From contig JBJEUJ010000113.1 in NCBI GenBank assembly GCA_051883775.1, forward strand, positions 1 to 60,502: 60,502 nucleotides of DNA. Direction: 5' to 3'. The stretch comes from Aristaeellaceae bacterium. Its GTDB lineage: Bacteria > Bacillota > Clostridia > Christensenellales > Aristaeellaceae. The position numbers were made by a program, and so were the translations under genes. This document shows, in pieces, positions 40,443-60,502 of this stretch; within the stretch, counting starts at the first letter, position 1; every line of letters starts with the position of its first letter. The notes under the pieces are model-generated. The model was not told the origin of the DNA. It searched no databases and worked only from the letters and a program-made list of their open reading frames with translations.

Positions 40443-40477
40443 AAACAAAAAATCCGAACCGGTGACCGGTTCGGATT
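40443..40477 (-). terminator. Minus-strand intrinsic terminator abutting repeat copy 1
   Basis: A perfect 12-bp stem, AATCCGAACCGG-tga-CCGGTTCGGATT (40451-40477). On the minus strand it is followed by UUUUUUGUUU (40443-40452). Confidence 0.6.
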
Positions 40478-40481
40478 TGTG

Positions 40482-40891
40482 CGTGGAGCATAGGGGATTC
40501 GAAGCGCGTCAATGTCTTCCCATGACGTCCATTGATGTCACTTCCGGCATTACTCTGTTTCCAAATAAGGAGATTATATCAATCAGGATCCCATAACATA
40601 CCACATGGTTCATGGTACTGATAATGGTATTTGGTCAGGCTGAAGCAGTCGGGTTCAGTTCAGAATTATCCAATATTGTGCGGGTTATCACCATAGAGCT
40701 GGCCCCCAATACAATACAAAGCGTATCATATGCGCCGAAGACTTTTTGCTTCACATATTTTCCGGACAGATAGATTCGCACACGATATAACCCGGCTGCA
40801 ATATGCGGTTATGGATGACCACGGATCTCGTTGGTTTCAACTGCAGGTCAGTGTTCTGTACCATCCTGAAATGTTCTATACAAGTGCTCCG
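40482..40891. repeat. ~410-bp direct repeat, copy 1 (partner 53563..53973)
   Basis: Hand alignment is collinear from CGTGGAGCA to GTGCTCCG. A 142-nt core (40624-40765 versus 53705-53846) differs at only 5 positions. The flanking blocks are more diverged and include small indels. Confidence 0.85.
40483..40503 (-). other. tRNA 3'-end-like fragment (T-loop to discriminator): att-core candidate, copy 1
   Basis: The minus strand reads TTCGAATCCCCTATGCTCCAC, that is T-loop TTCGAAT, a T-stem 3' arm and an acceptor 3' arm. No complementary T-stem 5' arm and no D or anticodon arms lie upstream, so this is a fragment, not a gene. Confidence 0.5.
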
Positions 40892-41374
40892 CCATGAGCT
40901 TTATTGGAAGTGATTGCATGAACCAAAGATATACATGGAGAAATCATCATGTCATTCTTTTCTGGCAGTGCGCAGTATCTGAACAATACCGGCCAGTGTG
41001 GATGCTCTGGTTTCAGGCTTTAGCTGACATTCCCAGATCGTCATTACATGCCAGCCTATCCGGATCAGGCGCTGAGTACCTCCTGATCACGAAGGACAGT
41101 CCTGCCAAGCTTTTCATGCCAGAATGCCTCGCTCGACTTCGGCAAAAAAGCACCTGCAGCCTTCATGTTTATGCCAGAAGCAGCCATTGGCAAAAGATAC
41201 CGTAAGTGCGAATGCTGTGGCTGTACAACCACCGGGCGTTCCGGCTTCGGCAGTCATGTGCCCTTCTTTTGCCTCACAATCCGAAGCAAGCTGCAGATGG
41301 TATCGATGACTGTTTTGCCCGGAAGCATGTACTGCAAGAGAAAGCCTCTATTCCAGATGGTCGATCCTATTCAA

Positions 41375-43717: not shown

Positions 43718-43925
43718 ATGAATCATCCTTTCCTGCGTATCACTCAGGTCATATCATGGACAGGCGCCATATCAGCATGGTACGCCGCCCGGTTTCTCCA
43801 TGGAGAAGACATTTAGCGCAACAGACGGCTTGCAGCCCCGCGAGCTGCGGAACCTGTGATCCCTATCCTGCCTGACGCGCTGAGCCATGTGCACCCCTGC
43901 GTCTGTCAACGACACCGTTCGCTGC

Positions 43926-46049: not shown

Positions 46050-46128
46050 CAAGGATAACCTCCTTTTTTCATTCACCATTCCAGGCCACGCACAGAACCT
46101 TTGGGAAAAGCTTCCGCTATGCTCTGTA

Positions 46129-46314
46129 TTACGCCCAAGAGGGTTTGATGATCAGTACGGGAACAATGTCATGAGCGGAGACAGTCTCTATCATATCAAA
46201 GATGATATTGCTATAGGAAACCAACGCTTTCAATACAGCTTTGCTAAGCTGTGTTGCAATGCTGAAGCGTTTGTTTATCCGGCTTTTCCACACCGAAGCA
46301 ACCCACCTCATCAA
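46129..46314 (-). pseudogene. Relic of a DUF6273-like gene 3' end (paralogous to the end of 47965..49521)
   Basis: 'AVLKALVSYSNIIFDMIETVSAHDIVPVLIIKPSWA*' corresponds to 'AVLKASDTYGNIAFETAEPGSAHDIVPVLILKPAWE*' in the intact gene. It occupies the same position, just upstream of a leader-bearing gene. Confidence 0.55.
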
Positions 46315-47885
46315 GGCTGCATATCACACTGGCTGTACTCGTTGTTGCCCACGCCGACCACGGTGCCGTCGGCCTTCAGGCCCACGGTATGATGTTCTCC
46401 TGCGCTGATGGCCACGATGTCTTTCCAGCCGCTCACATCGCACTCACCACACCCTTTAGGGCCTTCGGCGACAACGGTTCCATCGGCTTTCAGGCCAACG
46501 ATGTGGGAGCTTCCTGCACTAATGGCTGCGATGTCTGTCCAGCCACTCACATTGTACCGATTGGCCCACTTTCCTATAACGATAACGGTGCCATCAGCTT
46601 TCAGGCCAACCGTGTGGTAACTTCCTGCACTGATGGCCACGATGTCTGTCCAGTCACTTACATTGCACTGCCCATCGAGATTCAATCCCAAGGCTACAAC
46701 GGTGCCATCAGCTTTCAGAGCAACAATGTGGCTCTCTCCTGCGCTGACGGCCACAATATCTCTCCAGTCACTCACATTGCTCTGATCGAACCAAATATCT
46801 CCCACTGCGACAACGGTATCATCGGCTTTCAGACCAACGGTGCAGCTACACCCTGCGCTGATGGCCACGATGTCGCTCCAGTCACTCACATTGCACTCAC
46901 CGTGCTCATTCCACCCCGCAGCGACAACGGTGCCGTCGGCTTTCAGCCCGACGGTGTGATGTACTCCTGCACTGATGGCCACGATGTCTGTCCAGCCGCT
47001 TACATCGCACTCGCCGTACTCATTGCTGCCCACAGCCATCACCGTTCCATCTTCCCTCACGGCTGCGGTATGGTAGCCACCTACAGCAATGGTATTCTGC
47101 CCGGACAGGACGCGCGTGGTGGTCTGTTCGGGCTGCGTACTGCTTTCGGGGGATTTCTTCCTCAGGTAGATCACCTCGCCGCCTGTATTCAGCGAGAGGC
47201 TTCCGTCCTCATGCAACGCAACATATTGGTTGTCACTGACATACAGCATGCCGTCTTTCAGTGTCATCCGATAGGACTCTGACGGCTGCTGAAACAGCTT
47301 GTCCTGGTCGCCCGCAAAGAACAGCGTCATCGTACCATGATCAATGACGATCCCGAAAAAAAAGTATGACAGCGACTTCGGAATCCCTACGTCGCCCTTG
47401 ATGACATAGGCGTCATGCCATGTGCCGTCGAACGCATCCATGGATGCCGCAGGAATGACAGCGGGTGTATTGGCTTCCGCCGAAGCGCTGCGGCCAAAGA
47501 TAACAACCGCGTTTCCATGGATGCTGACCAGATGGCCGTCAATCGCATAGCAGGTTTCAAAGAGAGAAGTGCCCCGGTACAGGCGCAGACACCCGTCCTC
47601 AATGCGCCAGGTATAGGCGTTGGCAGACCCCTGCTCAAATGTTTCAGCCGTCCCATCCTGATTGATCTGCAGCACCATGTTCTCCCCGAGGACGGATGGA
47701 TCAAACAGCTCGCCCTGGTATTCCGCGTAGGTGGCATACCAGCGGCCGGAACAGTCCCACTGGGTACCGCCTTCCTTCCTGACGCCCACATCCTGAATCA
47801 TGGATGACTGTTCCGCATGACCGATTGTTCCAAGCATCAAAGTGGTCAGGAGTACCGCAAGCAACATTTTCTGTCGAAGCTTCAT
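46311..47885 (-). CDS. Secreted protein with lipocalin-like N-domains and a seven-blade RCC1-like propeller
   Basis: Start at 47885, after AAAGGGGG. The leader 'MKLRQKMLLAVLLTTLMLGTIGHAEQSSMIQD' is nearly identical to that of the WG-repeat protein. There are seven tandem 37-38-aa units, 'IVAISAG..HTVGLKADGTVVA.G.N..G.C.VS.W.D'. Confidence 0.75.
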   Translation of the reverse strand: MKLRQKMLLAVLLTTLMLGTIGHAEQSSMIQDVGVRKEGGTQWDCSGRWYATYAEYQGELFDPSVLGENMVLQINQDGTAETFEQGSANAYTWRIEDGCLRLYRGTSLFETCYAIDGHLVSIHGNAVVIFGRSASAEANTPAVIPAASMDAFDGTWHDAYVIKGDVGIPKSLSYFFFGIVIDHGTMTLFFAGDQDKLFQQPSESYRMTLKDGMLYVSDNQYVALHEDGSLSLNTGGEVIYLRKKSPESSTQPEQTTTRVLSGQNTIAVGGYHTAAVREDGTVMAVGSNEYGECDVSGWTDIVAISAGVHHTVGLKADGTVVAAGWNEHGECNVSDWSDIVAISAGCSCTVGLKADDTVVAVGDIWFDQSNVSDWRDIVAVSAGESHIVALKADGTVVALGLNLDGQCNVSDWTDIVAISAGSYHTVGLKADGTVIVIGKWANRYNVSGWTDIAAISAGSSHIVGLKADGTVVAEGPKGCGECDVSGWKDIVAISAGEHHTVGLKADGTVVGVGNNEYSQCDMQP

Positions 47886-47964
47886 GAAGTATACCCCCTT
47901 TTTTTCATTCATCATCGCAGGTCAAACACAGATTCTTCGGGAAAATACTTCCGCTATGCTCTGC

Positions 47965-49521
47965 TTACTCCCACGCAGGTTTTAGAATCAGCACGGGAAC
48001 AATGTCATGGGCAGAGCCGGGTTCAGCCGTTTCAAAGGCGATGTTGCCATAGGTGTCCGACGCCTTCAGTACAGCTTCTCGAAGCCAGAACTCGGACGCG
48101 CCCATCACATACGTATACCTTTTCTGGGAGCTTCCGCTCCTTTGATACACGTATTCGGATACATTGGCATCGACAACGGGATAACCGTAATTGGTCCCCC
48201 CCTGACGGGGCGCCTGATAGTTTTTGAATATTGCTTCGATTTCCTCCCGGGAGAGGATGGTGACTTCTTCGATCATTCTGGCTTCAGCAGGAGAAAACGC
48301 AGCATGGACAAAATCCTCGTTCAGCCATTGGTACAGCGAGCTATCTTCCCAGGCAACCTCCGCCGTGCCGGTGTGATAGGGCAGATACTCAAGCGCATTC
48401 GATGCCATGAGCATGATTTTTGATGAATCATTCAGATAAGGAATGTAAGACCATCTGATTGCCTCCGGCCCATTGCCGGTATTGCCATCCTGTTCATAGC
48501 GTCCGAATACCGGCGAAGTATCCTGTGCATGAGCAATCGCGGTACTGATTGGTTCACTGCAATGATCCAACCAGCAGGTGTAGGCGGTACTCATCAGGGT
48601 ATCGGCATAGTCAGTACTTAAGCGATCGTAAACCTGCAGCAGATCCAGGAACACCTGGTGACTTGTGCTGCAGTAGGACTCAGGATCCTGGTAATCCGCC
48701 ATCAACCGCTTCGTGAACTTCAGCATGTTGTCAGGCGAGTCAAAAAACGCATGGGTGGATGCCTGAATATATGCCAAAGCTCTGGGGATATCGTTCAGCC
48801 AGTGATCATAGGCAATATTCAGTAAGGGCCCGATGGCTTCTGCGTCAACAAACTCATAAATCGCAAGCAAATCCGTGAAGGCCTGACCGCTTGTATAACG
48901 GGTGGATTCCGTATCCTGATATTCGGTCAGCATCCTTTCTGACAGGCTTCGGATTCTGTCCCGGGCATCCTTGACGCCATTGGCTTTCTGATAGAATGCA
49001 AGCGCCTTGAGCACATCAGAATTCTCATATTTCCTGCCTTGCAGATAACAGTATTCTTCCACTGTGCGAACGCCCTTGATCAGCACACCGTCCTGCAGCA
49101 CCAGCTCAATCGCGCCGTCCGTGTTCGTCCGGAAAAGGCCTGTTGCATAGCCGTAGTAGCCGAAGCTGAAGTCGGAGAAGGTAATCCCGGCAAAGCATTC
49201 GCCCTCCCGCAGCTTATTGAGACGCTGCGAAAAAGATTGCTCCATGCTGTACGAGGCTGTTACAGGAATGTCAAGCCAGTTCGTTATGGCGACAGGTATA
49301 TCCAACCAGTTCGATTCGGCGGCAGAAACATCCTGCCAATTCATTTCGATGGTATCATCCTCCCGGATGGTGATACAGACAAACCTGTCATCCTCCAGAA
49401 AGCCGCCATATGTATCCACAAAGTCGACCTTTGTCAGCGAGAACAGCACGCCCGCTGCTGCGCCCGCGACCAACAAAACAGTCAGAACCGCAACCAGACA
49501 CTTCACGCTTTTGCTTTTCAT
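47965..49521 (-). CDS. Membrane-anchored protein with internal helical repeats and a C-terminal DUF6273-like domain
   Basis: N-terminal TM 'CLVAVLTVLLVAGAAAGVLF'. There is a tandem 9-aa duplication, 'NWLDIPVAITNWLDIPVTA', and two ~65-aa helical repeats. The C-terminal 'WEDSSLYQWLNEDFVHAAFSPAE...ILSREE...FWLRE...IVPVLILKPAWE' fits my recollection of DUF6273. Confidence 0.65.
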   Translation of the reverse strand: MKSKSVKCLVAVLTVLLVAGAAAGVLFSLTKVDFVDTYGGFLEDDRFVCITIREDDTIEMNWQDVSAAESNWLDIPVAITNWLDIPVTASYSMEQSFSQRLNKLREGECFAGITFSDFSFGYYGYATGLFRTNTDGAIELVLQDGVLIKGVRTVEEYCYLQGRKYENSDVLKALAFYQKANGVKDARDRIRSLSERMLTEYQDTESTRYTSGQAFTDLLAIYEFVDAEAIGPLLNIAYDHWLNDIPRALAYIQASTHAFFDSPDNMLKFTKRLMADYQDPESYCSTSHQVFLDLLQVYDRLSTDYADTLMSTAYTCWLDHCSEPISTAIAHAQDTSPVFGRYEQDGNTGNGPEAIRWSYIPYLNDSSKIMLMASNALEYLPYHTGTAEVAWEDSSLYQWLNEDFVHAAFSPAEARMIEEVTILSREEIEAIFKNYQAPRQGGTNYGYPVVDANVSEYVYQRSGSSQKRYTYVMGASEFWLREAVLKASDTYGNIAFETAEPGSAHDIVPVLILKPAWE

Positions 49522-49545
49522 ACTTGCCGATTCCCTCCATTGATA

Positions 49546-49890
49546 TTATTGTCCGTAGCTGAACAGTGAATCCACGTCAATGGAGGTGACGCCCTTTTTC
49601 AGCGTAACCTCCTCAAATTCAATGGTGTCGTTTGCGATTTTCCCGGTGATGCTTTGGCTGAAGCCGTAGGCCATCACAGTGAGCGTCAGCGTTGAGCCCT
49701 CCACCCTGTAGCTGCCGGAAACAGGAAACCCCAGGACATTGGTCGTTGCAGTGCCATCCTTGTTCAACTCGACCGTCATCGGAATGCCGAGCGCATTCAT
49801 ACCGCCATAGACGCCGGAATAATCCTTGCTGCACCCGGCAAGCAGCAGAACTGCCGCAGCAAGCGAAACCGCAAGCCATCTTCTTTTCAT
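49546..49890 (-). CDS. Small lipoprotein (114 aa), first gene of the island operon
   Basis: Lipobox 'VLLLAGCSK' and RBS GGAAGGATG. It has a beta-rich, lipocalin-like pattern, 'GSYRVEGSTLTLTV'. Confidence 0.7.
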   Translation of the reverse strand: MKRRWLAVSLAAAVLLLAGCSKDYSGVYGGMNALGIPMTVELNKDGTATTNVLGFPVSGSYRVEGSTLTLTVMAYGFSQSITGKIANDTIEFEEVTLKKGVTSIDVDSLFSYGQ

Positions 49891-49936
49891 GGTGTTTCAT
49901 CCTTCCATTCATTCGTACTGACAACGGAATATCCTT

Positions 49937-49965
49937 ATTCTATCCGGAACACAGGGAAGGAGCAA
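49937..49965 (-). promoter_or_regulatory. Promoter of the island secreted-protein operon (TTGCTC-17-TAGAAT on the minus strand)
   Basis: The -10 TAGAAT is the complement of 49937-49942. The -35 TTGCTC is the complement of 49960-49965. The spacer is 17 nt. Confidence 0.4.
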
Positions 49966-50004
49966 ACCGCCTGTGTTGCATATGCTGCCGCTGATCATTT
50001 TCCG

Positions 50005-50033
50005 TTGCAAATTGGCAAGAAAATCTTTATAAT
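50005..50033 (+). promoter_or_regulatory. Promoter of the LytTR/kinase operon (TTGCAA-17-TATAAT)
   Basis: -35 at 50005-50010 and -10 at 50028-50033, with a 17-nt spacer. RBS GGAGG at 50064-50068 precedes the ATG at 50079. Confidence 0.5.
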
Positions 50034-50078
50034 TTATGTAGATGTTTCCGCATTTCCTTCTGCAGGAGGTGTTACTCG

Positions 50079-50810
50079 ATGCTGCCTGTTGTTTTGCTGG
50101 ATGATGATGTCCACTATTCCAGCATATTCTCCTTACGCTTGCAGCGTGTCGCGGAGAAGCTGGGCTTTCCCTGCGAGCTTCGGCTGTGCGCCGAGAGCGC
50201 AGAGCAGGTTTTCACCTATGCCCAGGCGCATCCCGAGGGCAACCTGTACTTTCTGGATATTGAGCTGAACGAGGAAATGAACGGCCTGGCCGTGGCACGT
50301 CAGCTGCACCTGCTGGATCCGCATGGGTATATCGTTTTTATCACCGCTTATGAACACTATATCTGGGACGCCATGCATACGCATGTGTTCGACTATCTGC
50401 TCAAGCCGCTGACGGATGAAGCCATTGCCGCCTGCCTCCGCGGCATCAGCCGTGACCGGCAGAAAAAGCCCTTGTCCCGCTACAGCCTGGTTGTGCACAG
50501 CGGCACCCATACAATGATGATGAACCAGGAGGATATCCTCTATATCCATGTGAACGGCAACTATCTCACCGCCGTCATGCAGCAGAGCTGTCCGTATCAG
50601 TGGTACGGGCGGATGCGCCAGGTGGCGCCGCTGCTGGCAGAGGGTATGTTTATGCAGATCAACCGCAGCGACTGGGTGGCGCTGCGGCACATTCAGGGGC
50701 TTGATGCCAATGACAGCTGCTGTGTGCTGTCCAATGGCGAAATCCTGTCCGTATCCCGCCGCAGACTGGCGGAGCTCAGGAGCGCCCTGCAGGGGAGGGC
50801 TCAGCAGTGA
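50079..50810 (+). CDS. LytTR-family (AgrA-like) response regulator
   Basis: The receiver domain has all conserved residues: 'LLDDD', phospho-Asp context 'YFLDIEL', 'VFITAY' and 'DYLLKP'. The C-terminal LytTR-like domain includes 'EDILYIHVNGNYLTAV...MQINRSDWVALRHI'. Confidence 0.85.
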   Translation: MLPVVLLDDDVHYSSIFSLRLQRVAEKLGFPCELRLCAESAEQVFTYAQAHPEGNLYFLDIELNEEMNGLAVARQLHLLDPHGYIVFITAYEHYIWDAMHTHVFDYLLKPLTDEAIAACLRGISRDRQKKPLSRYSLVVHSGTHTMMMNQEDILYIHVNGNYLTAVMQQSCPYQWYGRMRQVAPLLAEGMFMQINRSDWVALRHIQGLDANDSCCVLSNGEILSVSRRRLAELRSALQGRAQQ

Positions 50811-52126
50811 TCAGCCTGGAGGTGTGCTGCGTCTGGTTCATTGTCAACATGGCAGACGGATCGATAATGTACCTGTTTTCCAGCATCATCCTGAACAGAA
50901 GGGTGACCTGGTCAGGATGGCTGGGCTATCTTTCCATCCTGATGGTGGTCGAGCTGGCCTCCATGCTGCTGATGGACGGGGGCTTCAGCGGCTGGAGCCT
51001 GTTGCTGGGGCTTGCGGAGCTGATCGGCATAGCGTTCATGGTGTTCCGCTACAGGGGCTGGGAGCTTGCCATTGGTGTGGCAACCATGCTGTGTGTCAAT
51101 ATGACGCTGGCGCTCTTGTCCGGAGGGGTGTCCATGCTGCTGCTGGGGGTGGAGCAGGTCAATGCCCTGATGCTGGATTGGCGGTGGCCCCGGCTGACAA
51201 TTGTCGCAGCGCACCTGCCGCTGCTGGTGCTGCTCCTGCCGGTGTACCAGCTGCGGAACTGGTGGCGGAACCGTCGTGCGGAGCTGCCTGATGGGTTCTA
51301 CTACATGCGCGCCCTGATTCTGCTGGCGGCTGCGGTAACCTGTATTGTGCTGCTGTTCAATCAGCTGCAGAGCATGGCGCTGGCCCAGCGGCTGAACCAG
51401 GTGGCGCTGCTCTTTGGCGTGGCAGCCGCAGTGCTGGCCATATGCCTGGCGCACCTGGCCCAGGATGTACGCTATCTGGGCATGCGCAAGCGGCATGAAA
51501 CCCTGTCCCGGAGCAAGCAGCTCAATGACGCCCTGGTGGAGGATATGCGTCAATTCCGCGGCAGCATGATCGCCATGGTGGATGGCCTGGGCGATGTGCT
51601 GCTGTCCGGCGCGCCCGAGGCCCAGCGGGCCTACTATGATCAGATGGCGCGGCAGTGCGCCCGGATCAACCATGAGAATGTACTGACCCTGCAGCGGCTG
51701 AATGAACCGGCGCTGGCCACGCTCCTGCTCAACAAGCTGGAACGGAGCAGACAATATGAGCTGCCCATGTACCTGCAGCTGACGGGTATGCCCGCCTTCA
51801 GCCGAAGGGTTCCATCCGCCGTATTGTGCCAGGCGGTGGGCGTGCTGGTGGACAACGCCATCGAGGCGGCGGCGGACTCCGAATATCCCCGGGTCAGCAT
51901 TGAGCTGGCACAGATCCCCAGGGGTGTTGAAATCAATGTGCTGAACACCTGCCCGCAGGAGCTTGACGTTCAGCGCTTTCTGGATGGAGAAGCCCTGTCC
52001 ACCAAAGGGGAAGGGCATGGGGACGGCCTGGCCAGCGTGGCGGCCCTGTGCAGGCGGTACCCCTGTATGCAGCTGAACAGATATGCCCGGGGCCGCTTTA
52101 TCGAATGCTCGCTGACAATCCGATAA
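50807..52126 (+). CDS. AgrC-like (HPK10/GHKL) membrane kinase paralogue 1: intact ATP-binding domain, phospho-acceptor His replaced by Gly
   Basis: Six or seven N-terminal TM helices. The H-box position reads 'DMRQFRGSMIAM' (GGC at 51560-51562) where the family has F-(R/K)-H-(D/N). The N-box 'VLVDNAIEAA' and G-box 'STKGEGHGDGLASV' are intact. The GTG start overlaps the RR stop. Confidence 0.75.
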   Translation: MISLEVCCVWFIVNMADGSIMYLFSSIILNRRVTWSGWLGYLSILMVVELASMLLMDGGFSGWSLLLGLAELIGIAFMVFRYRGWELAIGVATMLCVNMTLALLSGGVSMLLLGVEQVNALMLDWRWPRLTIVAAHLPLLVLLLPVYQLRNWWRNRRAELPDGFYYMRALILLAAAVTCIVLLFNQLQSMALAQRLNQVALLFGVAAAVLAICLAHLAQDVRYLGMRKRHETLSRSKQLNDALVEDMRQFRGSMIAMVDGLGDVLLSGAPEAQRAYYDQMARQCARINHENVLTLQRLNEPALATLLLNKLERSRQYELPMYLQLTGMPAFSRRVPSAVLCQAVGVLVDNAIEAAADSEYPRVSIELAQIPRGVEINVLNTCPQELDVQRFLDGEALSTKGEGHGDGLASVAALCRRYPCMQLNRYARGRFIECSLTIR

Positions 52127-52144
52127 GCAGGAGGCACAGCAGGA

Positions 52145-53422
52145 ATGTACACAACCGTGGAGTACTGGATCACTCTGGTGCTGAGAACCCTGCTGGATTG
52201 TGTCAACATGTACGCCGTTTGCTCCGCAGCGGTGGATGAAAAAATGACGGTCAGAGGCTACCTCCTGTTCTGCGCGCTGGAGACCGCCGTGGAGTGGGGG
52301 TACTGCCTGATCTGGGCACCGACCTATTCGGGCACCGCGTTTCTTGGCGCCATGGTGGTGGTGATGCTCCATGCGCGCATTGTGTATCACCGCCGCGGGC
52401 GGGCGTTTCTGCGGGCATCGGCAGCCATGCTGCTGGCGCAGTGTGCGTTCGTGGCGCTGTGCGCGCCGGTGGGTGTGCTGCTGTGGGGTGCAGAAAAGGC
52501 TAATGCCATTGTTGTCAGCAGCGGGTTTGACCGTGTGCGGCAGAGCGTGCTGAACGTAGCCCTGACGCCGCCCACCTGCCTGATCATCCGCCAGGTGCGC
52601 AAGCAGGCGCTGCGCTGCAGGGAGAAGGCGTCGGACATCCTGTACATGCTGCGTTCCGTGCTGCTGCTGGCGGTGGCGGTGGTATGTGCCTTTGTCCTGC
52701 TGAACCAGACCTCCTCCCTGACGTCATCCTCCCGTTTGCTGCCCATCACGATCAGTCTGATGGCCATCTGCCTGATGGCCTTTGTGTGTCTCTCCTACCT
52801 GATTGAGGACTTTCATTTCCTGAGCATGCGCCGCATGAACGACACGCTGGAGAGGCAAAAGCGGATGACAGAGGCGCTCATTGAGGATACGCGGCATTTC
52901 CGGCACAATGTGCTGAACATGATCTACGGCTTTGAGGGCATGCTCCTCAGCGAAGACCCGGAGCTGCGCCTGCGTTATTATCGTCAGCTGGCCGGCGAAT
53001 GTGCCAAGATCAACAATGAGAATATCCTGAACCTGCAGCGGCTGAACCATCCTGACCTGGAGGCGCTGCTGCTGGGCAAAATTCAACAGGCGCACAACCT
53101 GAACATTCCGCTCTTTGTTACCATCGGGAAGCTGCCGCGCATCCGCAAGGCTTCCGGGCTTGCGCTGCATCAGGCAATGGATCGGGCGGTGGATGACGCC
53201 ATCCGCATGGCGCAGAGCAGCGCCGATGCCCATGTTGGCGTATGGCTTGGCCTCGAAGGCAGCAACATCGGGCTGCGGGTGCTCTGCACCTGTGATGCGC
53301 CTGTCGCTCAGGATCGGAATGGCGCCCTGCTTCCGGGCATGGAGACTGTGCAGGCTGATGTGCCCGTCATGCTGCAAAGACAGGGCAGATTCCTGATCCA
53401 GACCATGATGTTTTTGACGTAA
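52145..53422 (+). CDS. AgrC-like membrane kinase paralogue 2: H-box intact, ATP-binding N and G boxes degenerate
   Basis: RBS AGGAGG. The TM sensor domain is followed by 'DTRHFRHNVLNM' (His codon CAC at 52904-52906). The N-box position reads 'AVDDAIRMA' (Asn to Asp). No 'KG..G.GL' box is present in the shortened C-terminus. Confidence 0.75.
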   Translation: MYTTVEYWITLVLRTLLDCVNMYAVCSAAVDEKMTVRGYLLFCALETAVEWGYCLIWAPTYSGTAFLGAMVVVMLHARIVYHRRGRAFLRASAAMLLAQCAFVALCAPVGVLLWGAEKANAIVVSSGFDRVRQSVLNVALTPPTCLIIRQVRKQALRCREKASDILYMLRSVLLLAVAVVCAFVLLNQTSSLTSSSRLLPITISLMAICLMAFVCLSYLIEDFHFLSMRRMNDTLERQKRMTEALIEDTRHFRHNVLNMIYGFEGMLLSEDPELRLRYYRQLAGECAKINNENILNLQRLNHPDLEALLLGKIQQAHNLNIPLFVTIGKLPRIRKASGLALHQAMDRAVDDAIRMAQSSADAHVGVWLGLEGSNIGLRVLCTCDAPVAQDRNGALLPGMETVQADVPVMLQRQGRFLIQTMMFLT

Positions 53423-53521
53423 ATCCTCTCATTTTCCCAACAACAGATCCCCCTGTTGTCGATGAACAACCATGATCGGAGATCATTTGCCCGGTAAGAA
53501 AGACCACTAAAGTCGAACAGT

Positions 53522-53558
53522 AAAAAAAGCGGAAATGTCATTTCTGACAATCCCGCTT
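53522..53558 (-). terminator. Minus-strand intrinsic terminator abutting repeat copy 2
   Basis: A bipartite hairpin, AAGCGG..TGTCA-tttc-TGACA..CCCGCTT (53527-53558). On the minus strand it is followed by a U7 run (A-run 53522-53528). A homologous hairpin lies at 40399-40430. Confidence 0.55.
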
Positions 53559-53562
53559 CGGA

Positions 53563-53973
53563 CGTGGAGCACAGGGGATTCGAAGTGCGTCAGTGGTATC
53601 CCATGCCACCCATTGATGTCACATCCGGCACCACTCATCATCCATATAAGGAGATTGTTTCAATCAGTATCCCATAACATACCACCTATTTCATGGTGCA
53701 GAACATGGTATTTGGTCAGGTTGAAGCAGTCAGGTTCAGTTCAGAATCATCCAATATTGTGCGGGTTATCACCATAGAGCTGGCCCCCAATACAATACAA
53801 AGCGTATCCTATGCGCCGAAGACTTTTTGCTTCACACATTTTCCGGGACAGCTATATTCGCATGCGCTGCAACCTGGCTGCGATATGCGGATATGTATGA
53901 CCACGGATCCCGCTGGTTTCATCTGCAGGTCAGTGCTCTACACCATCCTGAAATGTTCTTTTCAGGTGCTCCG
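53563..53973. repeat. ~410-bp direct repeat, copy 2 (partner 40482..40891)
   Basis: See copy 1. It has the same orientation and the same position relative to the att-like fragment and a minus-strand terminator. Confidence 0.85.
53564..53584 (-). other. tRNA 3'-end-like fragment: att-core candidate, copy 2
   Basis: The minus strand reads TTCGAATCCCCTGTGCTCCAC. It differs from copy 1 by one acceptor-arm position (G versus A). Confidence 0.5.
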
Positions 53974-54362
53974 TTATCCGGATACCCCCGGAAGCAAGTG
54001 CCTTGCCGAAGGTCAGCTGAAAACCAATAAATGGGAGCCGTTGCATGCAATAGCCAGGCGTACTCTGGCTTACGCGAAGCGAACCTTGAAAGATACCAGA
54101 ATGTCGCCAGAAGTCGCAGGACGGCCAAGGCAATACGTGCTATCATGTAAACTGTCACAGAAGGGTGAGAGCGCATGATGCTGCTCAGCATCGGGAGAAA
54201 GAGAGATCATTCACGGGCAGCTTATCCTCCCGCCAAGCCCATCATGAACCGCCCTTCCGTAATATGCCTGTGTTGAAGACCAGGTTCATCAGGGTTACTT
54301 ATACACATGATAAAAAGTTTCCAACAAAGTTGAAACATTTCCAATGAATGTCGAAAAATCCA

Positions 54363-54371
54363 TGCTATAAT
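54363..54371 (+). promoter_or_regulatory. Extended -10 promoter (TGcTATAAT)
   Basis: TGCTATAAT at 54363-54371. Downstream lie a hairpin (54405-54428) and, ~400 nt on, a strong terminator. Confidence 0.4.
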
Positions 54372-54735
54372 GGTATTGTACAATTTGGAATCGCACGATG
54401 AGCACCAACGGCATTGTCCGTTGGTGTTCTTACGTGCAACGAAAAGGAGGCAGCGCATGGGCAAGGCAGTTATACCGTTATGACCTTCCGGTTTCCCGTC
54501 ACCTGCGACCGACTTAACCTCGGAAGCGCGAACTGGTTGTGAGCCACACAGGGCTGATAGCTGGGAAAAGGACAGGAGAGTGACAAAAGAACACAATCAC
54601 AAAATGACCTATCCAATGTTCATACGATATTTCTCAAAAGAGGAGACACCAGAAGACGCATGGCGACACGAATGGACAGAAAGGAACAAGCAGAGACAAA
54701 GACTTTGTGTTATTATGTATCCTGTAAAAGTGCGA

Positions 54736-54770
54736 CGGGAGCCACCGAATGCGGTGGGCTCCCGTTTTTT
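54736..54770 (+). terminator. Strong intrinsic terminator upstream of the parM-like gene
   Basis: CGGGAGCCACC / GGTGGGCTCCCG forms an 11-bp stem with one bulge, followed by T6 (54765-54770). Confidence 0.75.
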
Positions 54771-54870
54771 GTACCCGTGTTCATGAACAGGAGGTGGTGC
54801 TCTTGATTGTGATAGACAAAGACAATTCTCTTCAGCCGACGACAATATCGAGAAAGCGAGTGAACCATGT

Positions 54871-55821
54871 ATGATGGATATGAACTGTAAACCCATCGTG
54901 ATCAGCTGCGATCACGGCTATGGGAATTGCAAAAGCAGCAACATTATTTTCCCCACCGGTATCGAGTGTGTTGCATCGAAGCCGGTTTTCCCGGCGGATG
55001 TGCTGGAGTGGAATGGCAGGCTGTACATCATCGGCTATGGGCACAAGGAATTCATCGACGACAAGACCGCCGATGAGGATTTCCGTCTGCTGACCATGGC
55101 GCTGATTGCCAAGGAACTGAAGCTCCGTCAACGCACCGAGGCAGTGATTTATCTCGCTGCCGGGCTGCCGTTGACCTGGGCCCGCGACCAGCTGGAGCAT
55201 TTCCGCGGTTACCTGATGTCTCCCCGGGAATATGACTTCATCCTGAACGATGAGAAGTACAGCGTCCGCATTGAAGACGTGCTCTTGTATCCGCAGGGCT
55301 TTGCGGCGCTGGCGGACAGTCTGGATACCTTCACCGGCATGAATATGATTTGCGATATCGGCAACGGCACCATGTCCACCATGTTCATCAACAACGGCAC
55401 GCCTGATCCGATGCGCTGCTACACCGAAAAGCTGGGCGTGCACCAGTGTACCCTGGCGCTGAAGGACGCGGTGATGCAGCACTTCCACATAGTGCTGGAT
55501 GATCACATCATTGAGGACTATCTCCGCACCGGAGAAACGACAGTTGCGCCAAATATCCGCAGCGTGATGGAATCCACCGTGCGGCGCTATGTGGAGAAGC
55601 TGATGCGGAGTATGCGTGAGCATGAATATAACCCCGACATGATGAAGCTGTACATCATGGGCGGCGGAGGATGCCTGATCCGCCACTTTGCCGATCCGGA
55701 GACCGCGACCCACATATCCTTCGGGCGCATCCAAATCGAGCCGGATATCCACGCCACCGCCAAGGGCTATGAGCGGCTTGCCCGGGCGCAGCTCAGGGAG
55801 CGTGGCATTGATGTCGAGTAA
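54871..55821 (+). CDS. ParM/StbA-family actin-like segregation ATPase
   Basis: The actin-fold motifs are phosphate-1 'ISCDHGYGNCK', 'LAAGLPL', phosphate-2 'MICDIGNGTMS' and adenosine 'LYIMGGGG'. Confidence 0.8.
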   Translation: MMDMNCKPIVISCDHGYGNCKSSNIIFPTGIECVASKPVFPADVLEWNGRLYIIGYGHKEFIDDKTADEDFRLLTMALIAKELKLRQRTEAVIYLAAGLPLTWARDQLEHFRGYLMSPREYDFILNDEKYSVRIEDVLLYPQGFAALADSLDTFTGMNMICDIGNGTMSTMFINNGTPDPMRCYTEKLGVHQCTLALKDAVMQHFHIVLDDHIIEDYLRTGETTVAPNIRSVMESTVRRYVEKLMRSMREHEYNPDMMKLYIMGGGGCLIRHFADPETATHISFGRIQIEPDIHATAKGYERLARAQLRERGIDVE

Positions 55822-56140
55822 CGGGATGAAGCAGATGAAGCTCCAGCTGCGGATGTATCCCGAAAGGAACGAGCAGCATCGCCGGGCCCTGGCGTGGCTG
55901 ATGGAGCACAGGACGGCGGGCGTCTCCTATGCGGATCTTGTATCGAAGGCAATCTGCGGTCAGATCGACCGGGAGCAGCGCATGGATGTGGAAGAGAGGA
56001 TGCGGCAGCTTGTCCGCGAGGAGATCCGGCGCAGCCTGCACGATGCAACCATCAGCGCGCCACAGGTGGAACCGCAGAAATCCTCCGAAGGAAGCCTTCG
56101 CAAGGCAAAGGACTTCATGTCCGGCCTGGGCTTCGGGTGA
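55811..56140 (+). CDS. Small RHH-like DNA-binding protein (ParR-like adaptor or relaxosome accessory)
   Basis: It overlaps the parM-like stop. The N-terminal 'MKLQLRMYPERNEQHRRALAWL' looks like a beta-strand plus helix (ribbon-helix-helix). An alternative start is at 55826. The function is inferred from its position between parM and oriT/mob. Confidence 0.55.
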   Translation: MSSNGMKQMKLQLRMYPERNEQHRRALAWLMEHRTAGVSYADLVSKAICGQIDREQRMDVEERMRQLVREEIRRSLHDATISAPQVEPQKSSEGSLRKAKDFMSGLGFG

Positions 56141-56504
56141 TGGCGCAAACGCCATCACTTCCGCGTGAACATGATGGCAGAAATGCCATCACCCCATGAG
56201 GAAAGGTCGTTCTCAGGAGATGAGAATGGCCTTTTCTTGTGGACGGGAGTCCGGAGGGCCGGTGCCCTTTGGGGCGGGTGCAGGGCGGCAGCGCCTGTCG
56301 GGTGTGCAGAGGGCAGCGCCCTTGCCGGGAATCCAAAGGGCAGCGCCCGTGGGCCGGGTGCAGGGTGGCAGCGCCTGCGCAGATGCAAGGGAAGGCCTTG
56401 CCCGGAGTCCAGAGGCGGAGCGCTCTGGCCCAGTGAAGTGTCGAAAGCGCAGCGGCCCGGAGGGTTCGACACTTCGTACTGGGTATTACCCGTCGAAAAC
56501 GGGT
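56137..56504 (+). promoter_or_regulatory. Repeat- and hairpin-dense GC-rich spacer: candidate oriT and/or centromere
   Basis: Two tandem hairpins: GTGATGGCG-caaa-CGCCATCAC (56137-56158) and TGATGGCA-gaaa-TGCCATCA (56172-56191). A 22-nt direct repeat GGGTGCAGGG(C/T)GGCAGCGCCTG occurs at 56276 and 56357. AGGGCAGCGCCC occurs twice. A 10-bp inverted repeat AAGTGTCGAA/TTCGACACTT lies at 56436-56474. A hairpin ACCCGT-cgaaa-ACGGGT lies at 56488-56504. Confidence 0.5.
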
Positions 56505-56572
56505 GCCCTTCAGGGGAAGCAACCTGCCGCAAAAACCACGGTTGCCCAATAGCATTGAAAGGAGGTGAATCG

Positions 56573-57859
56573 ATGAAAGATAAGCCCCGTGTATCCCGTC
56601 ACAACGGTCGTGCCGGGAAACATGGTGTCTATAATCCCAAGCACAATGATCGGAGCTTTGATGTTGAGAATGCAGAAAACATCAGCAAGGATCGCACCAG
56701 TCTGAACCTGTACTGGGACTGCATCAACGGCTTGCGCACCCATGAAGAAAACAGCACCGGTCAATACCCATCCTTCACCCAGCATGAGCATGACGAATAT
56801 GAGCGCCGCTACGGCCATTACGTGGCGGAGCAAAACAAACGCAACATCAAGGCTGGTCATGCCAAGCGCAACCGCACCGTGGACGATCTACTGGCAGACG
56901 CCCGTATCTGCCCAGAAGAAACCATCTATCAGATCGGCAAAGAAGGCGATTGCCCGCCGCCTGAGGTGCTGACCGCCATCGTGACGGAATTCTTTGCCAC
57001 CATTGAGGAGCACTTCGGGGAACACGTACATGTGTTGGACTGGGCGCTGCACCTGGATGAAACCAGTCCGCACATCCACGCCCGGCAAGTGTTTGATGTC
57101 GTGAACCGCTACGGCGAGCGTGAACCCAAGCAGGAGAAAGCACTGGAAACCCTGGGAATCCCTTTGCCAGAGCCGGACAAGAAGCCCAGCCGGGTAAACA
57201 ACCGAAAGATAACCTTCGATAAGATATGCCGCGAACTGCTGCTGGGCATCTGTCAGGAACATGGGCTTTCGGTGGAAACCGAAGCCATCTATGGCGGCAG
57301 AGAAAGCCGCGAAAAAAATGATTACATCATTGAGACACAGCGGGAAAAGATCGCCGAGCTGGAAAAGCGGAATGCAGAACTGACTGCCGACAACGAGCGT
57401 CAGAGTAGGCTGCTGGCGAAAACGACCACGGAATTGGATGAAAAACAAAACCAACTTGCCGATGCCGCCACAGTGCTGGAAGCCGTATCGGACGCTGCCT
57501 ATGACCAAGCTGTCAAGGTCGTTGCACATATCGCTGTAGATGAAACGCAGAAGGCAGATCAGTCAATTGTTGACAAGATGATCAACATGACTGCTGATCC
57601 AGAAAGACGGATGAAGCCCAAAGAACGCGATCTCATAGCCTTTTGGCTTCGCGGTGTTAAGGACAACATTGTGAAACGGGCGGCTAAGGTCGTGACAACC
57701 GTGCTGTCTGTGCTGCAAAAGCCGGAGTATCGCCGGGCAGCAAAAGACAAGATCAAGGAAACGGCAAGCCCAGCTGTTTCTCAGCTGCTCAGGGCATATG
57801 AACGCAGGCTGTCCTGTGACAAGGCTGTCAGGCGTGATCGAAACGACGATGCCCGATAA
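56573..57859 (+). CDS. MobV-family relaxase (plasmid recombination enzyme Pre/Mob)
   Basis: Start at the ATG at 56573, after GAAAGGAGGTG. N-terminal 'RHNGRAGKHGVYNPKHNDR' and the MobV motif H-x-D-E-x-x-P-H-x-H in 'ALHLDETSPHIHARQV'. The C-terminus is coiled-coil. Confidence 0.85.
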   Translation: MKDKPRVSRHNGRAGKHGVYNPKHNDRSFDVENAENISKDRTSLNLYWDCINGLRTHEENSTGQYPSFTQHEHDEYERRYGHYVAEQNKRNIKAGHAKRNRTVDDLLADARICPEETIYQIGKEGDCPPPEVLTAIVTEFFATIEEHFGEHVHVLDWALHLDETSPHIHARQVFDVVNRYGEREPKQEKALETLGIPLPEPDKKPSRVNNRKITFDKICRELLLGICQEHGLSVETEAIYGGRESREKNDYIIETQREKIAELEKRNAELTADNERQSRLLAKTTTELDEKQNQLADAATVLEAVSDAAYDQAVKVVAHIAVDETQKADQSIVDKMINMTADPERRMKPKERDLIAFWLRGVKDNIVKRAAKVVTTVLSVLQKPEYRRAAKDKIKETASPAVSQLLRAYERRLSCDKAVRRDRNDDAR

Positions 57860-57862
57860 TAT

Positions 57863-58573
57863 ATGTTTACGAGGTGTATTTTGAATCTGTTTTCTCAAAT
57901 CAAAGCAGCCATTACCACCCGGCAGGCTGCCGAACGCTACGGGCTGAAGGTCAGCCGCAACGGCATGACCTGCTGCCCCTTCCATCAGGACAAAACCCCA
58001 TCCATGAAGGTGGACGAACGCTACTACTGCTTCGGCTGCCACCAGACCGGCGATGTGATTTCCTTCACAGCCGGTCTTTTTCATACCGGGCCGTATAAGG
58101 CGGCGCAAAAGCTGGCTGCTGACTTTCACATCCATATCAGCGGGAATGACCAGCCCGAACGAAAAAAGGGAAAGAAACCTTTCACCCCGTTCAAGCCTGA
58201 CCTGGCCGGATTAACTTCCAGGCTGGAATCCATTAGGGTAGAAGCAGCCCGGCAGGAGCGCGAGGCCTGGATCAGGCAAGCGGTGGATGTGCTGGCTGAA
58301 TACCGGCTGCTGCTCCACGGGTGGATGGAGGAATATGCCCCTAAGAACGAGGACGAGGACTGGCATCCACGCTTTGTGGAGGCCTGCGCTCAAAATGAGA
58401 TCGTGGATGATCTGTTCAGCCTGATCGACGATCCGCTTGAACGTGACTATTGCTATGACAACTACCAGAGGGAGGTGAACAGTATCCATGTCCGAATTAC
58501 AGCATACCACTCAGGCACAGGAAATGCAGACTGCACCCGATTCACCCACGACGATCCCGGCTTTTGCCAATAA
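57863..58573 (+). CDS. CHC2 zinc-finger (DnaG-type) primase-like protein, no TOPRIM domain
   Basis: 'CCPFHQDKTPSMKVDERYYCFGCHQTGDVISF' is the primase CHC2 finger. The likely true start is the TTG at 57881, after GAGGTG. Confidence 0.75.
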   Translation: MFTRCILNLFSQIKAAITTRQAAERYGLKVSRNGMTCCPFHQDKTPSMKVDERYYCFGCHQTGDVISFTAGLFHTGPYKAAQKLAADFHIHISGNDQPERKKGKKPFTPFKPDLAGLTSRLESIRVEAARQEREAWIRQAVDVLAEYRLLLHGWMEEYAPKNEDEDWHPRFVEACAQNEIVDDLFSLIDDPLERDYCYDNYQREVNSIHVRITAYHSGTGNADCTRFTHDDPGFCQ

Positions 58574-59948
58574 TCCTGCCTGGAAGCCGCTCATGCCGGA
58601 AGAACACATGGAGCAGGCCTACAGCGCAATCCGCAATTCACTGGAGCATAATGACAAGGGACAAGTGATCAATTCACTGCAGAATTACGTCATTGCCCTG
58701 CAGCACGATCCGGTATTCGGCGGGCATATCCGGCGGAATCTGTTCACCGAAAAGATTGACGTTAACTGTGAGCTGCCGTGGATTCGCACATCGTCCGCGC
58801 TGGATGATACCGACCTGTCCTTTCTGCTGCTGCATCTGGATGCGCATTATGGTCTGCGGATGGAAAAGCAGCTGGTGCATGCGCTGCGGGTGGCATCCAC
58901 CAGCAAGGCGTTTCACCCTGTGCAGGAAAGGCTGCTGGGCCTGGAATGGGACGGCGTGCCCCGCCTCCGGGAAGCCCTGCACCACTTCCTCGGCGCGGAG
59001 GTCAGCGACTACAACGAAAAATGCCTGAAGGTGTTCATGTCCGGCGCGGTGGAGCGGGTCTTCCACCCCGGCTGCAAGTTTGAGCTGATGCTGGTGCTGG
59101 TGGGCGGACAGGGCGCGGGCAAAACCACCTTCATCCGCTATCTGGCCATGGAGGAGGACTGGTTCTCGGACGACATCCGCAACCTGAGCGATGACAAGGT
59201 GTTTCACCGGCTGAACGGCCACTGGATCATGGAGATGTCCGAAATGATGGCTACGGCGAATGCGAAGTCCATTGAAGAAATCAAGGCATTTCTTTCCCGC
59301 AGCAGGGATTTCTGCCGCCTGGCCTATGACCGCTTCGGCAGTGATCATCCCCGGCAGACGGTCTTTGCGGGCACCACCAACCGCATGAATTTCCTGCCCA
59401 CGGATCGCAGCGGCAACCGCCGCTTTCTGCCGGTGATGGTGCATCCCGAGCTGGCCGACTGCCACATCCTGGACAATCCGGAGGAATCCCGGCGTTACTT
59501 CGGGCAAATGTGGGCGGAGATCATGGTGTCCTACAAAGCCGGTACGTACCAAACCTATCTGACCCGGGAGGACGAAGCGCACCTGCAGCTGGAGCAGGAG
59601 CTGTTCGCCCAGGAGGATACGCTGGCGGGCAGAATCTGTGCTTACATGGAGAGCTATGCGGGCGACCGCCTGTGCTCCGTCCAGATCTACAAGGAAGGGC
59701 TGGATCACCCGACGGATGATCCAAAGCCCTACGAAACCCGCGACATCTGCGAGATTGTCAACCAGGGTATTGCCCTGGGGCACATCACCGGCTGGAGGGC
59801 ATTCAGGAGCCCGCGTCGGTTCAGGAAGTATGGCAATCAGCGGGGCTGGGAGCGGATACCCGCTGAGCCTGCGCAGGCGCTGCAGAAAGCGGAACAGCTG
59901 GGCTTTACGGTTACTGAGAACGACCCTGATCTTCCATGGAAAGACTGA
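58488..59948 (+). CDS. VirE-family (virulence-associated protein E) P-loop NTPase, primase/helicase-associated
   Basis: RBS GGGAGGTG. Walker A 'LVGGQGAGKTTF' and Walker B-like 'HWIMEMSEM'. It overlaps the zinc-finger gene by 86 nt. Confidence 0.8.
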   Translation: MSELQHTTQAQEMQTAPDSPTTIPAFANNPAWKPLMPEEHMEQAYSAIRNSLEHNDKGQVINSLQNYVIALQHDPVFGGHIRRNLFTEKIDVNCELPWIRTSSALDDTDLSFLLLHLDAHYGLRMEKQLVHALRVASTSKAFHPVQERLLGLEWDGVPRLREALHHFLGAEVSDYNEKCLKVFMSGAVERVFHPGCKFELMLVLVGGQGAGKTTFIRYLAMEEDWFSDDIRNLSDDKVFHRLNGHWIMEMSEMMATANAKSIEEIKAFLSRSRDFCRLAYDRFGSDHPRQTVFAGTTNRMNFLPTDRSGNRRFLPVMVHPELADCHILDNPEESRRYFGQMWAEIMVSYKAGTYQTYLTREDEAHLQLEQELFAQEDTLAGRICAYMESYAGDRLCSVQIYKEGLDHPTDDPKPYETRDICEIVNQGIALGHITGWRAFRSPRRFRKYGNQRGWERIPAEPAQALQKAEQLGFTVTENDPDLPWKD

Positions 59949-59962
59949 CCGGACCAACGAAT

Positions 59963-60071
59963 GACTACAACGACTACAAGACTACAAGCAAAACCCAACT
60001 TTTTTTCGGAGATGACTACAAGGTCGCAGAAAAAGTGTGGAAACCGTTGTAGTCTTTGTAGTCCTGTAGTC
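59963..60071. repeat. Iteron array: GACTACAA x4 direct followed by x3 inverted
   Basis: GACTACAA at 59963, 59972, 59980 and 60014. TTGTAGTC at 60047 and 60056, and TGTAGTC at 60065. The two triplets form an imperfect ~28-nt inverted repeat. Confidence 0.8.
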
Positions 60072-60108
60072 ATTCATTTTACAATATGAAATATGGAGGC
60101 TATTCTTT

Positions 60109-60360
60109 GTGATGAATCTGAACCTGCTTCTGTTCAGCACGCCCGAACAGAGCAATGTGCCTGCGAACAATCTCCGCGAATGTTCCCCGATGACCCTTAC
60201 TGTGCAGCAGATGGCGAAGGTTCTGAATATTTCCAGAAATGTAGCCTATGACCTGACCAGGGAGCCTGGTTTCCCGTGCTTTCGGCTGGGAAAGAAGATC
60301 CTGATCAACCGGGAGCTTCTTCAGGAATGGCTGAATTGCCAATGTAAAACTGTAGCGTAA
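60109..60360 (+). CDS. Excisionase/MerR-like HTH_17 DNA-binding protein
   Basis: 'LTVQQMAKVLNISRNVAYDLTREPGFPCFRLGKKILINRELLQEWL' is the excisionase-family HTH pattern. RBS GGAGG lies upstream of the GTG at 60109 and the ATG at 60112. Confidence 0.75.
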   Translation: MMNLNLLLFSTPEQSNVPANNLRECSPMTLTVQQMAKVLNISRNVAYDLTREPGFPCFRLGKKILINRELLQEWLNCQCKTVA

Positions 60361-60415
60361 AAAACTTTTCTCCATCGTTTCCTCTTCTCTTCTACTGATT
60401 TATCTTTTTTATCAG

Positions 60416-60502
60416 GTTGACAGTAGACATGTTGACAAATGCCCAAAAAGCGTTGAAATATAAGCGTTTTTTGCGTCAACAGGGATGTCAACAGACCTGT
60501 CA
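60416..60502. repeat. GTTGAC(A) direct and inverted repeat cluster (arm-type/operator sites) running into the window edge
   Basis: GTTGACA at 60416 and 60431, and GTTGAAA at 60452. Then GTCAACA at 60475 and 60487, and GTCA at 60499, cut by the window edge. Confidence 0.6.

Follow-up and report, generated by a model that had tools for sequence, protein, structure and literature searches.

A 410-nt direct repeat as the probable att-flanking arm of two tandem tRNA-Ala(GGC) islands in an Aristaeellaceae genome

The arm-type sites of heterobivalent tyrosine integrases, such as those of lambda, HP1 and L5, typically take the form of direct repeats that are paired and keep a fixed distance on each arm of the attachment (att) site. 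In the attP arms (P and P') of these phages and of Tn916 and ICESt1/3 the core is part of the target gene, one arm bears short direct repeats at about 110-150 nt from this core, the other arm has them close to the integrase gene, and the element encodes an Xis-like helix-turn-helix (HTH) protein. The same features are encountered in a stretch of 60,502 nt from an Aristaeellaceae bacterium (GenBank assembly GCA_051883775.1, contig JBJEUJ010000113.1), the whole of which is called here the window (60.5 kb), where one segment of about 410 nt occurs as two direct copies, at 40482-40891 (copy 1) and 53563-53973 (copy 2). This segment, referred to below as the module, is probably the non-coding terminal segment, or att-flanking arm, of two tandem islands inserted at tRNA-Ala(GGC) by a heterobivalent tyrosine integrase, the equivalent of the 'P arm' of lambda attP. 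The locus differs from the systems named above in that the repeat motif, which is ATGGTAC here and GTGGGTAC in sister elements, belongs like the tRNA-Ala(GGC) target specifically to this Clostridia-type family, the homology runs about 250 nt past what an arm needs, and the binding sites are predicted ones.

Displaced fragments of tRNA genes (tDNA) are known to mark the ends of genomic islands, and tandem arrays of tDNA islands have been documented (PMC4383910). As in the islands recognised by the Islander principle, of the T-loop/T-stem class, each island end carries a 20-nt 3' tDNA fragment that is oriented like the tRNA, a new 3' end and a terminator come from the island, and two islands stand in series. 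Unlike typical Islander islands, the regenerated tRNA and the integrase are located outside the window, and the first island, island A (40482-53562), having no integrase, would fail the Islander filter. The formation of cis-mobilizable elements (CIMEs) and their accretion at the attR site have also been described (PMC5704250). The likeness to the tandem accretion of ICESt1/ICESt3 in Streptococcus thermophilus is that an integrase-less, att-bounded island lies beside a related mobile element and that the att-flanking arm is their only common sequence; the partner, island B (53563 to beyond the window end), is in contrast a small replicative, satellite-like element (ParM, Rep, primase, VapE) and not an integrative and conjugative element, and cis-mobilisation is putative here.

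The repeated module and its tRNA-Ala fragment

Alignment of the two copies with MAFFT gave 411 columns, 53 of which differ (about 87% identity), in agreement with the positions given for them in a preliminary description of this DNA. That description had reported five differences in a 142-nt core (40624-40765) between more diverged flanks; the five substitutions were found, together with a 1-nt indel. The identity is 96% in the core, 81% in the left 142 nt and 84% in the right 126 nt, and the mosaic conservation is real, because about 18 core differences would be expected under a uniform rate. The module is not a gene: stops occur in all six frames of copy 1 and copy 2 alike and no protein homologue was found, which bears out the non-coding behaviour noticed before. 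Its GC content is 45-48%. Copy 1 forms the non-coding end of island A and copy 2 that of island B.

The minus-strand end of each copy reads TTCGAATCCCCT(A/G)TGCTCCA, and the tRNA-like sequence that had been seen next to both copies can be assigned precisely. It is a displaced 3' fragment of tRNA-Ala(GGC), extending from the T-loop to the discriminator, at 40484-40503 of the minus strand in copy 1 (TTCGAATCCCCTATGCTCCA) and at 53565-53584, also minus, in copy 2 (TTCGAATCCCCTGTGCTCCA). Related loci were collected by searching with the integrase of the type found on the metagenome contigs L002 and L003 and then fetching the genomic contexts. In six of these metagenome loci (L012, L013 and L024-L027) an intact tRNA-Ala(GGC) on the minus strand ends in the same 20-mer, a T-stem variant of 1 nt included, and adjoins a hairpin terminator and a tyrosine integrase gene. 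Both fragments match this tRNA 3' end, have the orientation of the tRNA and lie at an island boundary.

Different DNA is joined at the fragment in different loci. L002 and L003 are 99.7% identical on the right of the hairpin and carry different elements on its left; L003 and L014 have a common left element and unrelated DNA on the right of the fragment; in L012 the tRNA is intact. These junction differences identify the fragment as the att core used by a family of tyrosine integrases that target tRNA-Ala(GGC), and the homology is broken at the T-loop.

Each fragment is succeeded by a terminator on the minus strand. The intrinsic terminator directly after fragment 1 (40450-40478; a 13-bp stem, then TTTGTTT) is interpreted as the tRNA-Ala terminator of the host itself, at the boundary between chromosome and island. 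After fragment 2, a hairpin (AGCGGGATTGTCAGAAATGACATTTCCGCT) followed by TTTTTTT was read at 53522-53557 and was not listed by the terminator scan; it lies at the end of island A that faces the tRNA, and at a time when island A stood alone it would have terminated tRNA-Ala.

Some further observations concern the att side of the related loci. The hairpin between integrase and att core (L002 9823-9858) is almost identical in L003, L012 and L025, the integrase genes of L002 and L003 being about 69% identical in DNA, so that the L002-type hairpin terminator seems to travel with the att core and not with the integrase. An IS256-family (Transposase_mut) element lies between the integrase gene and the att-side hairpin in the gut metagenome loci L003 (8400-9820) and L014/L015 (8098-9336), with an additional DDE_Tnp_1 fragment at this place in L014. 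An apparent element is also inserted at or beside the att region in L031 (10645-15451) and L032 (2663-7469).

Candidate arm-type sites and organisation of the arm

The sole distant homologue of the module was found on L002 and L003, which retain the approximately 185 nt nearest the fragment at 72-77% identity. The order on both contigs is VapE, tyrosine integrase, hairpin, fragment, left part of the module, ribosome-binding site and tnpV gene. Conservation is uneven along this part: 40507-40589 is only 57-58% identical to L002 (57% for copy 1), and the block 40590-40665 shows 79-88% identity across copy 1, copy 2 and L002/L003 (86% between copy 1 and L002).

This block contains a cluster of paired repeats on the plus strand. 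At 40598-40630 of copy 1 the series ATACCAC, ATGGTTC, ATGGTAC, tgata, ATGGTAT is read, and at 53679-53711 of copy 2 ATACCAC, a degenerate ATGGTGC and ATGGTAT, the pattern being kept with one mismatch. The pattern ATGGTAY-N5-ATGGTAY is found in the window in the two modules only, against 0.02 occurrences expected, and among 27 fetched loci only beside att sites and in one constant orientation. The pair lies on the distal arm in L002/L003 and on the integrase-proximal side, in the interval from the integrase stop codon to the hairpin, in L012 and L025-L027. ATACCAC stands at offset +113 in copy 1, copy 2, L002/L003 and also in the distal arm of L014, which is otherwise unrelated and where it is followed by GTGGGTAC-gatt-GTGGGTAC. 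Sister elements carry GTGGGTA(C/T) instead, with two to three copies beside the integrase gene in L013 and L002. The ATGGTAC and GTGGGTAC variants of the candidate arm motif recur with a period of 11-12 nt. As a pattern, repeats are present on both arms and at fixed distances from the core, and those at 40598-40630 look like arm-type integrase sites. A comparative basis is hereby given, for the left 185 nt or so, to one of the candidates named in the preliminary description, an integrase/Xis arm region of unusual length, through the att core and the paired direct repeats.

The cluster is followed by a second conserved stretch, TTTGGTCAGGCTGAAGCAGTCGGGTTCAGTTCAG (40631-40665), which includes the CTGAA-n9-TTCAG repeat and is kept in L002/L003 too; it may be a site for an accessory protein (Xis or a host factor) or part of a promoter. 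The rest of the near-identical core, 40666-40765, with three substitutions and one indel in its 100 nt, and the right block, 40766-40891, 84% identical between the copies and ending at GTGCTCCG, are both known only from this window.

The module would then be laid out as follows. Its first 22 nt or so would be the att core; positions +114 to +146 would hold the integrase arm-type sites (ATACCAC, then ATGGTAC-N5-ATGGTAT); the next 35 nt or so would be a second conserved protein-site or promoter block; and the last 225 nt or so, with most of the near-identical core, would be island-end DNA, conserved either through a function in cis or through sequence exchange between the copies. Each integration would leave, read on the minus strand from the tRNA, the 5' part of the tRNA joined to the core, a terminator, the integrase gene, the cargo, the module and finally the displaced core. 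Two such elements would lie head to tail, island B as a small replicative, satellite-like element and island A as one that no longer has its integrase and retains its ends only, in the manner of a CIME formed by tandem accretion. The islands would share only the arm, and the arm therefore shows as a 410-nt direct repeat. From two sequences, the stretch of roughly 250 nt on the far side of the arm sites may be read as a region for an accessory protein or a promoter, as a small RNA acting in cis or as a gene-conversion tract.

Homologues of the module were sought by several routes. BLASTN of the module against phage and plasmid collections gave no match, exact 20- and 25-mers of the core found nothing in genome, viral and metagenome contigs, and the junction pattern found nothing in viral contigs; a conserved 20-mer had only a chance match, in a phage structural gene. 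The back-translated core peptide, used as a multi-pattern probe, retrieved no relative from genomes or viral contigs and only L002/L003 from metagenomes. Loci reached through the ParM-like and Rep-like neighbours (L001, L008-L011) were without the module or ended before it, the module was not found in the TnpV relatives L006 and L007, and nhmmer profiles of both module halves revealed no further copies among all fetched loci. For 40666-40765, no homologue was detected in the genome, metagenome and viral scans.

Folding of the module and alternative explanations

The reading favoured in the preliminary description was a plus-strand folded RNA or single-stranded DNA (ssDNA) element, namely a single-strand origin (sso), an ssDNA promoter or a non-coding RNA, for which an Rfam search and a covariation analysis had been proposed. 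Neither spoke for it. Rfam gave no match for either copy at the gathering threshold, and at E<=10 only chance matches to small nucleolar RNA, CRISPR and small RNA models. RNAalifold on the two copies counted four compensatory pairs on the plus strand and three on the minus strand, in a sample of two sequences (three for the left part); when the same substitutions were moved randomly within the same blocks, a mean of 2.3 pairs was obtained, and four or more in 16% of trials. Single-sequence folding was rated not significant, with RNA z-scores against dinucleotide shuffles of -0.95 and -2.4 (plus strand) and +0.6 and -0.8 (minus strand) and plus-strand ssDNA z-scores of -0.36 and -1.18.

Three small hairpins with their substitutions were located as the preliminary description claimed, but the third (CAATG..CATTG) is not kept in L002/L003. 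Its argument that the wobble pairs are legal only on the plus strand rests on three pairs, an outcome expected about one time in eight by our estimate. A further small inverted repeat, ATGTC-ttcccat-GACGT (40512-40528, plus strand), reads GTGGT-atcccat-GCCAC in copy 2, so that two pairs have changed on both sides in a compensatory manner; pairing in L002 requires a shift of the register by 2 nt, and one stem of this kind falls within the output of the relocation null. An 11-bp inverted repeat (40645-55/40789-99), which brackets the near-identical core, is kept through a G:C to A:T double change and arises in 7.5% of shuffles, and a 7-bp stem (40804-10/40839-45) survives a change from T:A to A:T. 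The small hairpins common to both copies number 29 on the plus strand against 16 +/- 5 in column shuffles, 20 against 7 for those with stem variation. For both strands the consensus fold has a somewhat lower energy than in the relocation null (z -2.5 plus, -2.1 minus), a signal that is not confined to the plus strand. The sparing of inverted repeats is a weak hint, short of evidence for a structured RNA and without solid strand specificity. At the settings used, the module contains no inverted repeat of at least 40 nt and no long sso-like hairpin; no plus-strand terminator was found in it, nor a promoter conserved between the copies, the sole 10/12 promoter match in copy 2 being degraded in copy 1 (spacer 15, TAGATT).

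A strand-specific folded cis element, whether a non-coding RNA, an ssDNA origin or promoter, or a retroregulator, is an unlikely occupant of approximately 40640-40891. The contrast between the core (96%) and its flanks (81-84%), the excess of conserved plus-strand hairpins, the plus-strand consensus energy and the double changes in the 11-bp repeat and the 40804-10/40839-45 stem would all suit it. The energy signal is, however, equally present on the minus strand, the compensatory pairs do not exceed their null, the 11-bp repeat is not rare in shuffles, and hairpin 3 is lost in L002/L003; the absence of Rfam matches even at E<=10, of significant single-sequence folding in RNA or DNA, and of a plus-strand terminator or shared promoter likewise tells against it. 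Copy 1 has, moreover, no replication or transfer gene nearby. A linkage to a rolling-circle Rep or relaxase, as would suit an sso or ssDNA promoter, may exist for copy 2 only, where the 564-aa protein of island B has a sub-threshold match to Mob_Pre (E 0.0039, 17.5 bits against a cut-off of 25.5). For the retroregulator, a model is provided by lambda sib, a cis RNA lying across attP from int and linked to int only in the excised form. The plus strand of the module has the same geometry, but no long RNase III-type hairpin is present, and the analogy is speculative. That the 250 nt or so beyond the arm sites (40640-40891, 53721-53973) are a new cis-acting folded element at tRNA-Ala island ends is quite doubtful; such an element could be an RNA that the excised circle, and no other form, links to the int-xis transcript, as in sib-like retroregulation, or else a small regulatory RNA that a CIME must keep. 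It is also unlikely that the near-identical 142-nt core has no function and owes its identity solely to a recent event of gene conversion or recombination between the two direct copies, which lie 13 kb apart. Both copies stand as direct repeats in one genome, the identity along them steps from 75-85% to 95-100% and back down, and 40666-40765 has no homologue elsewhere in the collections scanned, all of which would be expected of a conversion tract. Conversion alone cannot, however, explain 40624-40665, the left third of the core, because this stretch is conserved in the distant L002/L003 as well, and the tract still carries five substitutions and an indel.

Two gene-based explanations were also weighed. 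A decayed protein-coding gene, left as a pseudogene at the island end, is very improbable. An open frame of 49-53 codons does span the core, and in L002/L003 the left part of the module abuts a real gene, tnpV; yet stops interrupt all six frames in both copies, no ribosome-binding site could be read ahead of the ATGs, no remnant of tnpV or of a repressor was found in or beside the module, and a six-frame query made of joined stop-free stretches matched no protein at E<=1 among 5.8 billion sequences. The ends of the module suggested in addition a minus-strand RNA gene with tRNA-like ends, tmRNA-like or an intron-bearing tRNA, that served as the integration target. GGAGCAC and GTGCTCC are complementary over 7 nt, perfectly in copy 2, as had been noticed before, and with a U.G pair in copy 1; GGAGCAC at the 5' end and GTGCTCC-A at the 3' end could form an acceptor-like stem of 7 bp, a minus-strand terminator follows, and the module occupies the place of the tRNA body in L012. 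This candidate was largely refuted and is hardly credible: ARAGORN finds no tRNA or tmRNA gene in the window, Rfam yields no match to a tRNA, tmRNA or intron model at E<=10, the T-stem is unable to pair (CGCGC against CCCCT), the 5' part of the minus strand is no more like tRNA-Ala than shuffles are, L002/L003 keep only the 185 nt nearest the fragment, and minus-strand folding is unremarkable (z +0.6, -0.8). It was observed separately that the homology between the copies stops at this 7-nt inverted match to the acceptor segment of the att core, which may be a coincidence or an old secondary recombination site.

The att-flanking arm remains the probable identity of the module, with several points to be set against it. 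Binding of the integrase to the ATGGTAC-type repeats is inferred from their sequence pattern, and the ATGGTAC pair was not found at the tRNA-proximal end of island A (53423-53521). The arms of attP usually need about 150 nt, as in lambda, and the homology here covers 410 nt; the stretch best conserved within this genome (40666-40765) falls beyond the arm sites, and the sparing of inverted repeats by the substitutions slightly exceeds the relocation null. The terminators on the left of the fragment are nearly identical in L002 and L003, whose integrases are only 69% identical in DNA, which is unforeseen by the simplest form of the model. Finally, the integrase of island B and the intact tRNA-Ala are outside the window, and identical public contigs stop at about 60441.

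The two islands and their significance

Chromosomal sugar-utilisation genes extend up to 40.3 kb, and at 40.4 kb the GC content drops from 0.62-0.67 to about 0.52. The cargo of island A (40892-53521) comprises, by protein annotation, four large surface-protein genes, a LytTR response regulator and two AgrC-like kinases, and no recombinase or replication gene was found among the proteins of the island. Being bounded by att sequences and devoid of recombination and transfer genes, island A resembles a CIME. Its regulator and kinases follow one another at 50079-53422, the two AgrC-like membrane kinases being consecutive and the second having no Pfam match and a weak NCBIfam AgrC match; the group looks like an Agr-type sensing module without obvious agrB or agrD. 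Two sets of repeats were observed in the surface-protein region. Five tandem coding repeats of 114/228 nt, 61-72% identical to the reference copy, are located at 46355-47149 within an RCC1_2-repeat surface-protein gene (46311-47915, minus strand), and a direct repeat of 74-81% identity, 45953-46249/47789-48085, with its copies 1836 nt apart at the ends of neighbouring surface-protein genes, probably represents paralogous N- or C-terminal segments.

Island B beyond the module (53974-60502, plus strand) is cut by the window end. It contains 900 nt without a gene, followed by a ParM-like gene, a 109-aa open reading frame (ORF), a Rep-like gene, a primase Zn-ribbon, a VapE helicase and an HTH_17 Xis-like gene (60112-60360). 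Between 54871 and 60360 these genes form a compact replicative set, in which the 109-aa ORF has the position of ParR and the Rep-like protein has 564 aa, and which resembles the replication modules of phage satellites or of integrative and mobilizable elements. The 900 nt or so between copy 2 and the ParM-like gene (53974-54870) have no convincing ORF and no protein match; L010 and L011 carry a divergent CI-like repressor at this place, of which no remnant is detectable in the window. In relatives the order continues with VapE, HTH_17, integrase, terminator and tRNA-Ala, and the Xis-like protein matches only short contigs that end at the same place (about 60441). Islands A and B have only the module in common, and the pair fits a tandem accretion with a decayed, integrase-less member (CIME); we infer this history for island A, and an intact tRNA-Ala and integrase gene beyond the 60.5 kb.

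An att-flanking arm of tandem tRNA-Ala islands is a known kind of feature and a fairly ordinary one, the motifs being newly defined here; a new class of element would be at hand only if the leftover core proves functional. What appeared to be a mystery non-coding RNA becomes a mapped att region, and in a gut Clostridia-type genome the att core at tRNA-Ala(GGC), candidate motifs of the arm type and the limits of both tandem islands are defined, which is of use for the annotation of islands and for the choice of integrase/att pairs as tools. Island A, with its surface proteins and Agr-like sensing genes, clearly illustrates a cargo island that has no integrase and that its neighbour could mobilise in cis.

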